In this document: positions 18,001 to 21,000 of the stretch, in pieces
How the letters are laid out: every line of letters begins with the position of its first letter
How positions within the stretch are numbered: position 1 is the stretch's first letter
IMG/VR virus record: IMGVR_UViG_2512047041_000009
Location: 1-37,224 of that record
Source of the DNA: a virus
Taxonomy: Duplodnaviria > Heunggongvirae > Uroviricota > Caudoviricetes
Strand: one strand, 5' to 3'
Length of the DNA: 37,224 nucleotides
Made by a program: the position numbers

Positions 18001-21000
18001 CCGGACTGCCAAATGGCTGCCACCCCTCCTTCAGTTTTTGTGTCAGTCGTTTCGCAAGGTCTGACGGCGATGCCGCCCTGACCACGTCATAGTGTTTAAA
18101 TGCCATGAATCCTCCCGGCCGGGATAATATTGTGAGTAAAATAAGGAGCGGGCTGAAGTCCGGAAGTTACAGGACAATGGCAGAAGAGAGACGACAGCCC
18201 GCAATTCGAAAAAGACCGCGCAGTTGCGCAGCCTTATGAATTCTGGTTAAAATCCATTCGATTATAAAAATGTATATCTCATGCTGTTGCCCGAACCCAC
18301 TCGGGCTTTTTTTTGCCCACAAGAAAGCCCCTCCGGAGAGGGGCTAAAGCCGCGTATCTGTATCATCATGCACATGATGCCGGGTGCCTCCCGGTGAGTT
18401 CAGTATCAGCACCTGAACCCGCACAGAAAGGATAAGGGTCGGTGACAAAACACCAGTTGCTGATTGCCCCTCCGCACAGGGGGATTCACCATGCCAGTTT
18501 CTTTTAACAAATTCGCCGCTAACAGGACAACATTCCGCTTTCTGAGTTGTGAGGAATTTAACACTTCACACCTGTGTGCATTTTCTACAGGCTGATCCCA
18601 GCACCACAATACATCGCAGGCAACAGAAGCCAAATGCCCCACCACAGAAAAAACATGCAATTATGATTATTGTTTACTGCAAAGATGTAGAATCACGGTT
18701 TAAAATCCAGCACTCCATTGTGAAATACTTTATATACTTCCGGAGACGGCGGAACTGGTATATCAGCATGCTTCACCGCATTCATCGCTTCACGACATAA
18801 ATCGGGGTCTCCACCTTCTCTTTTAACCTGTAGCAGAAGACCATTCGGGGCCATATACATTCTCAGTGAACACTCTTTTCCTGAATACTTACTCGCATCC
18901 TTTAACTGTTCTTCTATGGCTTTCCTGACCTGAATGGCATACTGCCTGATTTCTTCACTGGCATCAGGGGTACGTTCCGATGAGCTCAAATTTTGCGACT
19001 TTATTAATTTATCTGAGTGATACAGAGAAGCATCATAATTATTTGTCGATACATCTTTTGTGCAGCCAGTTGTCAGACTGGCTAATATCAAAACAAGAAC
19101 TGGTACAGCACGGCAATACATTTATCCATCTCCATATTAACAAGAACAATTATCTATAAAATATAGTAAATATGCGGGATCCGGGAGGACTTGTAACTAT
19201 CATCTCCGGATCAGCATGTAGTTTTTATTTTTCCGGATGATATATGCCGCAATAATACCTCTGCATACAGATGCCTGCAAATATCTGCGAAGCATCCGGC
19301 GAGAATAAACAAGGAAGTCTGAGGCTATCTTATATGATAGCCTGTTGCTCAAAAGACAATGATTCACTCATCAGAACCAACAACGCATAATGCAGATAAT
19401 GGACCGCCATCGAGGACTCGAACCCCGCGCAGCCAGCTTCGAAGGCTGGCGCTCTATCCCGATGAGCTAATGGCGGTATGTGATATGGTGGCCCTTGCTG
19501 GATTTGAACCAGCGACCTGGCGATTATGAGTCGCTCGCTCTCACCACTGAGCTAAAGGGCCGGGCGCAGGATAATAACGGTACGTAACTAATTCTGCAAT
19601 ATCATCCGTTCTGACTGACTAAATCCTGAACTTCCCGAACCGTCTGCTCAAAACGTTCAGTCTCCAGCTCAACGCCTGTAGCACGACGGCCCAGTGCCAG
19701 TGCAGCTTTAACTGTTGAACCTGACCCCATAAAAAAATCTGCAACCAGGTCACCCGGACGACTGCTTGCGCTGATTATCTGCTGCAGCATTTCTGCCGGT
19801 TTTTCGCACGGATGTTTCCCGGGATAGAACTGCACCGGTTTATGCGTCCAGACATCGGTATACGGCACCTGCGCCGTCACGCCAAAATACCGCCGCAGTC
19901 GGCATTCACAACCACCAGCGCATTTAACGTTCAGGCACAAAAAAACCCGCTCGACGGCGGGTTTAAGCTGTGTGACGAAGTAACCACTCTTAACAGCATA
20001 ACCAATTTTTTACGTACGTAAACTACTAAATGATATTTGTGAGAATGCCACCGAGTGTTCAAAACACCACCACAAATACATAAGAAAACTTCAACAAATA
20101 ACCAATGAATAATTTCCGATGTTATTTTTAGGTTGTTTAAATTAAGCCAAAAAATTATAGGGCACTTATAAATAAGTGTCATTAATATAAATTAGCTAAT
20201 AGATTTATTTTTGTTCAAACAAGAGCCATGAATAGGATTAGATAGAAAAGGTTCAGATAAAAATAGAGATCTACGTCACAAATTAAATGAGAAACTAAAA
20301 CTTACATCTTGAAATAATCACATTGATTAGATGAATATTTATCGCGCAGTGACATCATTTTTTTATAATAGTTCAAAAAAAGGGCGTACAATGAAAAAAT
20401 TAACAGTGGCAATTTCTGCTGTAGCTGCATCAGTACTGATGGCGATGTCTGCTCAGGCAGCTGAAATTTATAATAAAGACAGTAACAAGCTGGATCTATA
20501 CGGGAAAGTTAATGCCAAGCACTACTTCTCCTCTAATGATGCAGATGATGGTGATACTACTTATGCTCGTCTTGGCTTCAAAGGTGAAACCCAAATCAAC
20601 GATCAACTGACTGGTTTCGGTCAGTGGGAATATGACTTCAAAGGCAACCGTGCTGAATCTCAAGGTTCTTCCAAAGACAAAACCCGTCTTGCATTTGCAG
20701 GCCTGAAATTTGGTGATTACGGCTCAATCGATTACGGCCGTAACTTCGGTGTAGCATACGACATCGGTGCGTGGACTGACGTCCTGCCAGAATTCGGTGG
20801 TGACACTTGGACTCAAACCGACGTGTTCATGACTCAACGTGCAACTGGTGTTGCAACTTATCGTAACAACGACTTCTTTGGTCTGGTCGATGGCCTGAAC
20901 TTTGCTGCTCAGTATCAGGGTAAAAATGACCGCACTGACGTAGCTGAAGCCAATGGTGATGGTTTCGGTTTCTCCACTACTTATGAGTATGAAGGATTCG

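Follow-up and report, generated by a model that had tools for sequence, protein, structure and literature searches.

A TolA domain III on a predicted outer membrane lipoprotein encoded in the stx slot of a defective lambdoid prophage of Escherichia coli

We analyzed a 37,224-nucleotide stretch of Caudoviricetes DNA (IMG/VR record IMGVR_UViG_2512047041_000009, positions 1 to 37,224; here called the window) and found that an open reading frame (ORF) at 18693 to 19121 on the minus strand encodes a product that is, by homology, a domain III of TolA (TolA-III), and not a TolA. The 142-amino-acid (aa) product is predicted to be an outer membrane lipoprotein, with both its lipidation and its location read from the sequence. 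Its gene belongs to a large family carried by mobile elements rather than being an isolated oddity, and it is under purifying selection. We consider it probable that the protein competes with the cell's own TolA for the ligands of TolA-III, because it combines a predicted outer membrane lipid anchor, a tether of about 33 residues, and a conserved ligand-binding strand with the lack of any connection to TolQR. The reading we favor, which we hold tentatively and at slightly short of an even chance, is that the protein serves as a decoy tethered to the outer membrane and titrates filamentous phages and Tol-dependent colicins. Within this reading, we infer the binding of ligands, the expression in lysogens, and the protective phenotype.

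The ORF was identified in the ORF listing, by its matches to Pfam PF06519 and to TolA structures in the PDB, and by an identical ORF in E. coli CE10. A Shine-Dalgarno sequence, GGAG, lies 8 nt 5' of the ATG at 19130 to 19133 (minus-strand read GGAGATGGATAAATG). The N-terminus of the product is MYCRAVPVLVLILASLTTGC followed by TKD, which places a Cys at residue 20 and Thr-Lys after it. Codons 1 to 20 (19062 to 19121, minus strand), read directly, encode a signal peptide and lipobox: a basic n-region, M-Y-C-R, with Arg4; a 12-residue hydrophobic core, AVPVLVLILASL; and L-T-T-G-Cys20, so that the mature protein would start Cys-Thr-Lys. An earlier reading of this DNA (the original prediction) had proposed a 142-aa product with a lipoprotein signal and Thr at position +2; both can be seen in the sequence, and the lipobox Cys is invariant in an alignment of 37 clusters of the family. 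The Thr at -3 is non-canonical, and other alleles have LTAGC or IIIGC, but PROSITE-type lipobox rules permit Thr at this position. The residue at +2 is not Asp, which is the inner membrane retention signal in E. coli.

The rest of the mature protein consists of a linker and a domain. Codons 21 to 53 (18963 to 19061, minus strand) encode a flexible linker between the lipid anchor and the domain, with no secondary structure and low predicted local distance difference test (pLDDT) scores in the AlphaFold2 (AF2) model; it is the most divergent part of the protein between alleles. Codons 54 to 142 (18696 to 18962, minus strand) encode TolA-III. The original prediction of a C-terminal TolA-III with both Cys held up under profile and structure comparison. 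Residues 52 to 140 match PF06519 (TolA C-terminal) over profile positions 7 to 96 of 96 (E = 3.8e-23; 81.9 bits, compared to a cutoff of 25). Residues 54 to 142 align without gaps to E. coli TolA 333 to 421 with 54% identity (E about 1e-26; TolA numbering is offset by 279, such that TolA 333 is residue 54), and Cys84 and Cys109, which are invariant in the 37 clusters, align with TolA C363 and C388. TolA matches came from seven distinct PDB sequences, including chains 1s62, 3qdp, 1tol, and 9k49.

We used an AF2 model built on the 37-sequence alignment of divergent family members, which superseded a poor model (pLDDT 53) built from 13 close alleles. In this model, pLDDT is 87 to 98 over residues 51 to 142 and below about 55, mostly <50, over residues 1 to 50. 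The modeled domain has three α-helices (α1, 54 to 70; α2, 106 to 118; α3, 127 to 133) and a three-stranded β-sheet (β1, 84 to 90; β2, 96 to 104; β3, 137 to 140), and it is predicted to superpose on solved TolA-III: 0.7 Å over 88 columns (template modeling score 0.95) for TolA-III in its complex with IF1 g3p (2x9a_B) and 0.8 Å for TolA-III in the M13 g3p fusion (1tol).

In other respects, the protein differs from TolA. Its sequence lacks the N-terminal transmembrane anchor (domain I) and appears to have a cleavable lipoprotein signal ending at Cys20 instead. It also lacks the helical domain II rich in Ala, Lys, and Glu; only 33 residues, predicted to be disordered, separate the anchor from the domain. 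The gene lies in the late region of a prophage, between tRNA genes and nanS-p, rather than in a tolQRA-tolB-pal context. RefSeq names the product (WP_000271630.1) 'cell envelope integrity protein TolA'. PRK09510, the full-length model, scores below its cutoff (104.6 compared to 213) and aligns over model positions 297 to 386 only, whereas TIGR02794 scores above its cutoff (74.2 compared to 59.45) through its C-terminal quarter alone (model positions 266 to 362), and this is the origin of the RefSeq name. The name is misleading for this gene and overstates the protein. A separate observation concerns an intact Rac-type TolA-III lipoprotein gene (locus L094, 20220 to 20480), which RefSeq lists as a pseudogene ('missing N-terminus'), apparently because it was judged against full-length TolA; in some genomes, this way of annotating also turns the intact ORF into a 'partial' tolA.

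Colicins and filamentous phages enter E. coli via TolA-III. The N1 domain of g3p and the N-terminus of TolB both augment the sheet of TolA-III at strand β3, whereas colicin A uses β2, on the opposite side, and the dissociation constant (Kd) of TolA-III and TolB is 40 to 200 µM (PMC7391070). Colicin A contacts TolA L375 to P380 and forms cation-π pairs with K368, K379, and K396; its Tyr58, which pairs with K368, is the one aromatic residue essential for stability of the complex (PMC3365938). In the window protein, the C-terminal strand β3, L138-D-F-K-P142, is identical to TolA 417 to 421 (LDFKP). The β2 strand reads L96, L97, Q98, V99, K100, R101, compared to L-L-D-I-K-P in TolA; on the colicin A face, both Leu residues are kept, as are TolA K379 and K396 (here K100 and K117). 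Judged by these residues, the g3p/TolB face looks intact and the colicin A face looks altered in part. Overall, 46% of domain positions differ from TolA, and conservation is strongest in β3 LDFKP, the GGDP-x-LC turn, and the IP-x-PPS loop. The nearest domain outside the protein's own family is E. coli TolA-III (54% identity), compared to ≤48% for other lipoprotein clusters.

The window is 100% identical to positions 2481859 to 2519082 of E. coli O7:K1 CE10 (NC_017646.1), a lambdoid prophage adjoining mlrA. On the minus strand, the order of genes is a QuuD-type antiterminator Q gene (annotated quuD; 21661 to 22059; Pfam Phage_antitermQ, E = 8e-54), which is the upstream regulator of the late operon; a porin gene on the opposite strand; a truncated DNA methylase gene; a tRNA gene with a CAT anticodon (19486 to 19561); tRNA-Arg(TCG) (19400 to 19476); the TolA-III lipoprotein gene; and the next late gene, nanS-p (16145 to 18106), which encodes a SASA-family sialate O-acetylesterase (Pfam SASA, DUF1737, and DUF6645). 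Farther 3' on the same strand are DUF1378, DUF826, holin, endolysin, and Rz genes. The tRNA genes are directly upstream of the ORF, as they are in Shiga toxin (Stx) phages. ARAGORN calls the CAT tRNA tRNA-Met, whereas RefSeq calls it tRNA-Ile (ileZ-like, as in Stx phages).

The position between this tRNA pair and nanS-p had been proposed to be the slot in which Stx phages carry stxAB, and the flanking homology bears this out. Positions 19379 to 19898 (argN, ileZ, and methylase) and 18324 to 18552 (just downstream of stx2B) are homologous to the Stx2a phage AP012536, and these flanks are common to hundreds of Stx phages. The break points of homology delimit an 826-bp, AT-rich cassette (18553 to 19378, minus strand) in place of argO-stx2AB; argO, the third tRNA gene of Stx2 phages, is absent along with stx2A and stx2B. 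The cassette consists of the ORF, 257 bp of private upstream sequence, and about 140 bp downstream. GC content is 38 to 44% over 18450 to 19350, compared to 50 to 58% in the flanking late genes. As expected of a moron, the segment is a cassette of distinct base composition between homologous flanks that are filled differently in Stx2 phages. On this sequence comparison, the cassette is alternative cargo at the same recombination point as stx.

Related loci occur in lambdoid prophages, and the family also occurs on plasmids and in several genera. We detected a DNA match of at least 80% in 897 of 5,426 complete E. coli genomes (about 16%, or one in six). Chromosomal tolA is too dissimilar to be found by megablast, as this count indicates, and the GC content of the gene is low; therefore, a recent capture from E. 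coli tolA is unlikely. A HMMER search of 1.84 billion cluster representatives gave 330 matches, and we inspected the best 150. Among these 150, 79 were 100 to 190 aa in length; of the 79, about 56 had a lipobox and about 10 had an ordinary signal peptide. The family comprises dozens of clusters at 50% identity across Enterobacterales, mostly lipoproteins, and its named members belong to Serratia, Klebsiella, Kosakonia, and Dryocola. In E. coli, the N-terminus is of one of two types, MYCR...LT[TA]GC followed by TKD or MGFR...II[IV]GC followed by TDA, each with a lipobox. None of 51 family lipoproteins had D at +2, where the residue was T, A, S, V, N, Q, H, L, M, G, or E. Besides the Cys of the lipobox and both Cys of the domain, the 37-cluster alignment has G81, G104-D105, A115, and P122 as invariant residues.

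Some elements carry more than one member. The 67% allele class has a second, diverged TolA-III lipoprotein gene in tandem, encoding 131 aa (MGLKKIVMLTFWVGFVAGC followed by TPL), directly upstream of the holin gene. The tandem pair is found at ≥99% identity in 776 genomes, in the cryptic Rac prophage between a Q-like gene and essD-rrrD-Rz. Diverged TolA-III lipoprotein paralogues or members of 131 to 144 aa are encoded at L024 6580 to 6975, L094 20652 to 21026, L090 7995 to 8426, L093 6001 to 6432, and L092 5812 to 6246. A different form is found on one IMG/VR phage contig (L084, 4329 to 5309), directly upstream of holin, endolysin, and Rz genes. Its 326-aa product starts with an ordinary signal peptide and has two TolA-like domains, of which the first is TolA/TonB-like and the second has 78% identity to TolA-III of E. 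coli; between them is a short stretch, rich in Ala and Lys, that resembles domain II of TolA.

Plasmids carry a DNA relative of the second paralogue of the tandem pair, at 87% identity. On pO157 this relative adjoins a truncated nikB, and on conjugative IncB/O/K/Z (MPF_I) plasmids the paralogue follows directly after the relaxase genes nikA-nikB and precedes trbABC. A further lipoprotein member on conjugative Klebsiella IncFIB/IncFII (MPF_F) plasmids adjoins a thioredoxin-fold gene outside the transfer region. In PLSDB, 881 of 72,556 plasmids carry a family member, and 468 of the 881 are conjugative. In contrast, among 50,697 phage genome records a homologue occurs in just one (mEp460_ev081), and we found none in any sequenced Stx phage of the phage genome collection. 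Single distant family members, when compared to viral contigs, matched 0 to 1 loci each; the Klebsiella member had no match in a scan of the genome collection. The Kosakonia member has an island-like context that is not clearly prophage, so the distant members cannot all be called phage-borne. The family is catalogued in databases (as phrog_5772, function unknown, in PHROGs) but misnamed, and as far as could be found it is uncharacterized. The original prediction knew of no characterized lambdoid moron of this kind, and we found none in the searchable literature, nor any functional study of a phage or plasmid TolA-III protein; a published transposon insertion sequencing (TraDIS) study of an I-complex plasmid does not mention the TolA-III gene under a recognizable name.

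Selection on the gene can be seen among its relatives in IMG/VR, where the 142-codon ORF is intact in all 80 of the related loci retrieved, far more than chance would allow. The pairwise ratio of nonsynonymous to synonymous substitution rates (dN/dS) is 0.23 to 0.36 in the domain and 0.3 to 0.6 in the signal and linker. Between alleles, dN is 0.24 to 0.45 in the linker compared to 0.05 to 0.13 in the domain, and dS reaches about 0.5. There are signs of recombination inside the gene among these alleles.

If the protein is a decoy, the Lol pathway would deliver it to the inner face of the outer membrane, where the flexible tether of about 33 residues would hold a copy of TolA-III. With neither an inner membrane anchor nor a link to the TolQR motor, this copy could bind TolA-III ligands but could not transduce energy. 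It would be the first TolA-III met by the translocation domain of an incoming colicin or by the g3p N1 of a filamentous phage, and the ligand would be trapped unproductively. The prophage, or a related plasmid, would in this way make its host cell tolerant to Tol-dependent colicins and would protect it from filamentous phages specific for pili. A moderate dose of decoy could be enough to shield the cell without crippling Tol-Pal, because TolA-III binds TolB weakly and its parasite ligands much more tightly, at about µM.

Several observations lead us to favor a decoy. Purifying selection has kept the gene in two elements past phage production, the CE10 prophage and Rac; homologues are almost absent from sequenced phage genomes; the family is present on conjugative plasmids, whose pili are the primary receptors for TolA-dependent filamentous phages; and the same prophage carries an analogous lipoprotein with a TonB domain. 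Plasmids of the MPF types named above build pili that filamentous phages use before they engage TolA. The closeness of the domain to host TolA-III would be expected of a mimic that has to fit host-specific ligands. Free TolA-III in the periplasm reportedly also raised colicin tolerance, in a 1993 paper on the domain. A passage in PMC6195910, citing Wan & Baneyx 1998 and Levengood-Freyermuth 1993, states that TolAIII fused to a signal sequence makes E. coli leak periplasmic proteins. With g3p-N1 or pIII in the periplasm, cells resist colicin A and take up phage at a level 4 logs lower, effects attributed to sequestration of TolA (PMC10424213). The original prediction had offered, as an inference, either a decoy against Tol-dependent colicins and Ff phages or a perturbation of Tol-Pal. 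That pair of readings has become more plausible given the conserved β3, the tether predicted across the family, the presence on pilus-making conjugative plasmids and in cryptic prophages, and the published work on TolA-III and g3p.

Other observations weigh against a decoy. The gene lies in a Q-dependent late operon, and the sole promoter-like site upstream of it is weak: a sigma-70-like candidate, TTTGCA-18-TATTAT (9/12), at 19252 to 19281 on the minus strand in the private upstream region. Neither the 75% nor the 67% allele class conserves this candidate, and the upstream regions of the allele classes are unrelated. At TolA K368, the window protein has Tyr89 and other phage alleles have His or Asn, and Arg takes the place of P380; because K368 pairs with the essential Tyr58, binding may fail at least for colicin A. 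The tandem paralogue shares 26% of its residues with the window protein, and both it and the plasmid copies show 34% identity to TolA-III and end in GFDMRG, not LDFKP. Because they are far more diverged, the argument from plasmids transfers only loosely to the window gene. PADLOC has no model or match for a TolA-III lipoprotein.

In the main rival reading, which we judge unlikely, the protein would be an inhibitor of Tol-Pal used by the element. A tethered TolA-III would capture the N-terminus of TolB in TolB-Pal and block the TolA-driven release of Pal. Attachment of the outer membrane to the cell wall would be weakened, aiding rupture and particle release or vesiculation, and on plasmids helping the transfer apparatus to pass; as a late product of the Q-dependent transcript, the protein would appear just before the holin, endolysin, and spanin. 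The constant late-operon position, which in most relatives is directly upstream of the holin gene, is consistent with such a role, as are the identity of the TolB-binding β3 strand and the location of the plasmid paralogue inside the transfer region, adjoining nikB and trbABC; shared tethering to the outer membrane could offset the weak Kd. Overproduction of periplasmic TolAIII releases periplasmic proteins in E. coli (PMC6195910), and tol mutants hypervesiculate (PMC7391070). However, many plaque-forming phages would be expected to carry a lysis helper, yet a single phage record has a homologue, and the gene has been kept in prophages that are past productive lysis (CE10, with a defective portal and terminase, and cryptic Rac). 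In addition, the Klebsiella IncF copies are outside the transfer region, spanins already handle the outer membrane, and the affinity of TolA for TolB is very low.

It seems quite improbable that the TolA-III fold has been redirected to another partner, such as CpoB, a porin, a peptidoglycan enzyme, or a lambdoid DNA-entry component, and acts in superinfection exclusion or envelope modification unrelated to the classical TolA ligands. The share of domain positions at which it departs from TolA, K368 and P380 of the colicin A face among them, would fit this idea, as would the deep paralogues in the family, two of them in tandem in Rac-type prophages, and the porin and TonB-domain lipoprotein of the same prophage, which suggest broad envelope remodeling. 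Conservation is nevertheless strongest in the elements that TolA uses for its known partners, host TolA is the nearest relative outside the family, and no alternative partner candidate emerged from our analyses. We regard as very improbable that the gene is an inert passenger, a captured tolA fragment hitchhiking in the recombination hot spot of the lambdoid late region. The carrier prophage is defective, some lineages have frameshifted or truncated copies (P0022 to P0037), and no phenotype is known; against this, dN/dS is low and all 80 ORFs are intact across alleles that differ by dS of up to about 0.5, the added signal peptide and lipobox are conserved over dozens of 50%-identity clusters in several genera, and the low GC content argues against recent capture of E. 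coli tolA. An aid to phage entry, supplying extra TolA function or a co-receptor for genome internalization, is scarcely credible. It was speculated for the 'TolA' of a Cronobacter prophage (ESA_03048; PMC2833190), in the sole published comment we found. Once a cell is infected or lysogenic, a protein that it makes comes too late to help the phage enter, and this one has neither the membrane anchor nor the domain II that TolA function requires. To our knowledge, lambdoid phages have not been reported to need TolA.

The prophage that carries the gene is defective. In the RefSeq annotation of CE10, the portal and large terminase genes are frameshifted and the tape measure gene is truncated against btsS; from this annotation and a comparison with the related locus L015, the decayed regions are 275 to 1159, 4149 to 6733, 8946 to 10608, and 19602 to 19898. 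The DNA methylase gene in the window is an N-terminally truncated remnant of a 352-aa gene that is intact in L015. Within the frameshifted portal region, at about 4603 to 5147, comparison of the window with itself revealed copies about 92% identical at an offset of 162 bp, which suggests a tandem duplication. In L015 (7125 to 8218), which belongs to the 94 to 95% allele class, a second methylase fragment and then a 241-aa ORF and a 92-aa ORF come after the TolA-III gene and before nanS-p. The 241-aa ORF resembles an AraC-type regulator by reading of its sequence, without a family search, and it would be another cargo island at the same spot.

The terminator scan found no convincing terminator after the TolA-III ORF before that of an STnc100-family small RNA (sRNA) match (18315 to 18523, minus strand; Rfam RF02076, 132 bits, E = 3e-30). 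This match is part of the backbone shared with Stx phages 3' of the ORF and ends at a terminator-like hairpin at 18345 to 18326. A match to an AsxR/AgvB-type prophage anti-sRNA (18259 to 18311, plus strand; 63 bits, at the gathering score) has a terminator at 18289 to 18306, and both matches fall in the 586 bp that separate the ORF from nanS-p. The STnc100 element of mEp460/Rac-type phages is upstream of the TolA-III genes, not downstream. Farther upstream in the window, a strong promoter-like site, ATGACA-17-TATAAT (11/12), at 20182 to 20154 on the minus strand is followed after about 190 nt by a terminator-like hairpin at 19964 to 19943 that is conserved in Stx2 phage; the two may be a pR'/tR' pair displaced from Q by the porin gene. 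An apparent 32-fold induction by ciprofloxacin of a prophage 'TolA' in EDL933 (PMC11125564) was dropped because the supplement identifies it as a tail-fibre gene.

The prophage also encodes other envelope proteins. Downstream of Rz, a 108-aa ORF at 12196 to 12522 on the minus strand begins MKRNLPLIILLSSLVMGC followed by TQHK, a lipoprotein signal, and has a complete TonB C-terminal domain (CTD; Pfam TonB_C, E = 1.3e-14) that aligns to E. coli TonB 151 to 231 (E about 1e-15). It is present in 415 of 5,426 E. coli genomes, many of them Shiga toxin-producing E. coli. PHROG 1267 labels this family 'Rz-like spanin', but an o-spanin is unlikely given that the ORF is outside and downstream of Rz and has the full TonB CTD. 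By their sequences, the two lipoproteins appear to give the prophage tethered tips of TolA and of TonB, the two energy transducers of the envelope. The third cargo gene that alters the envelope, at 20331 to 21473 on the plus strand, separates Q from the remaining late region and encodes an OmpC/NmpC-like porin (Pfam Porin_1, E = 8e-151) and is preceded by a very AT-rich stretch (GC 26 to 31%). It is possible, although we regard it as rather doubtful, that motor-less lipoprotein copies of the TolA and TonB C-terminal domains form a new class of protective genes on Enterobacterales prophages and conjugative plasmids, intercepting group A and B colicins and Tol- and Ton-dependent phages. If so, this prophage carries both arms, with the TolA-III lipoprotein at 18693 to 19121 and the TonB-CTD lipoprotein at 12196 to 12522, and the class would represent defense by mimicry of a host import hub.

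Known forms of colicin resistance are loss of the receptor, tol mutations that damage the envelope, and specific immunity proteins. A decoy would be a different, transferable route to broad tolerance of colicins and phages. It would bear on competition among gut strains, on the use of colicins and phages as antimicrobials, and on M13-based technologies in wild strains, as well as on which non-toxin cargo fills the stx slot, with paralogues on pO157 and on resistance plasmids. If the protein is instead an inhibitor of Tol-Pal, it would be a natural tool for studying TolB-TolA coupling and vesicle formation.

Compared to domain III of E. coli TolA (approximately 333 to 421; 1S62, 3QDP, 1TOL, and 2X9A), the window protein is homologous throughout, with the same fold, both Cys, and an identical LDFKP. 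It differs in having K368 and P380 replaced and in its lipoprotein signal and 33-residue linker, which stand in place of the TolA anchor and domain II and would tether it to the opposite membrane, uncoupled from the proton-motive force. Engineered periplasmic TolAIII is likewise a free TolA-III in the periplasm, detached from TolQR, but it is artificial, soluble, and overproduced, whereas the window protein is natural, diverged, mobile, predicted to be lipid-anchored, and under purifying selection. The exclusion mediated by g3p-N1 or pIII of filamentous phages involves the same interface between TolA-III and g3p N1 and has the effect proposed here with the logic inverted: pIII masks host TolA, whereas the window protein would pose as TolA and soak up ligands as they arrive. 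The stxAB cassette of Stx2 phages occupies the same slot, between tRNA genes and the STnc100/nanS-p backbone, with unrelated cargo. Llp of T5, Cor of φ80 and N15, Bor of λ, and TraT of plasmids are small outer membrane lipoproteins of mobile elements that alter entry into the cell. The window gene resembles these in type and in its moron-like placement, without any sequence relationship. Proteins of the Llp/Cor type act on outer membrane receptors such as FhuA, whereas the window protein would imitate a periplasmic import hub. What would be new here is an envelope lipoprotein of a mobile element that alters import by mimicking a hub of its host.

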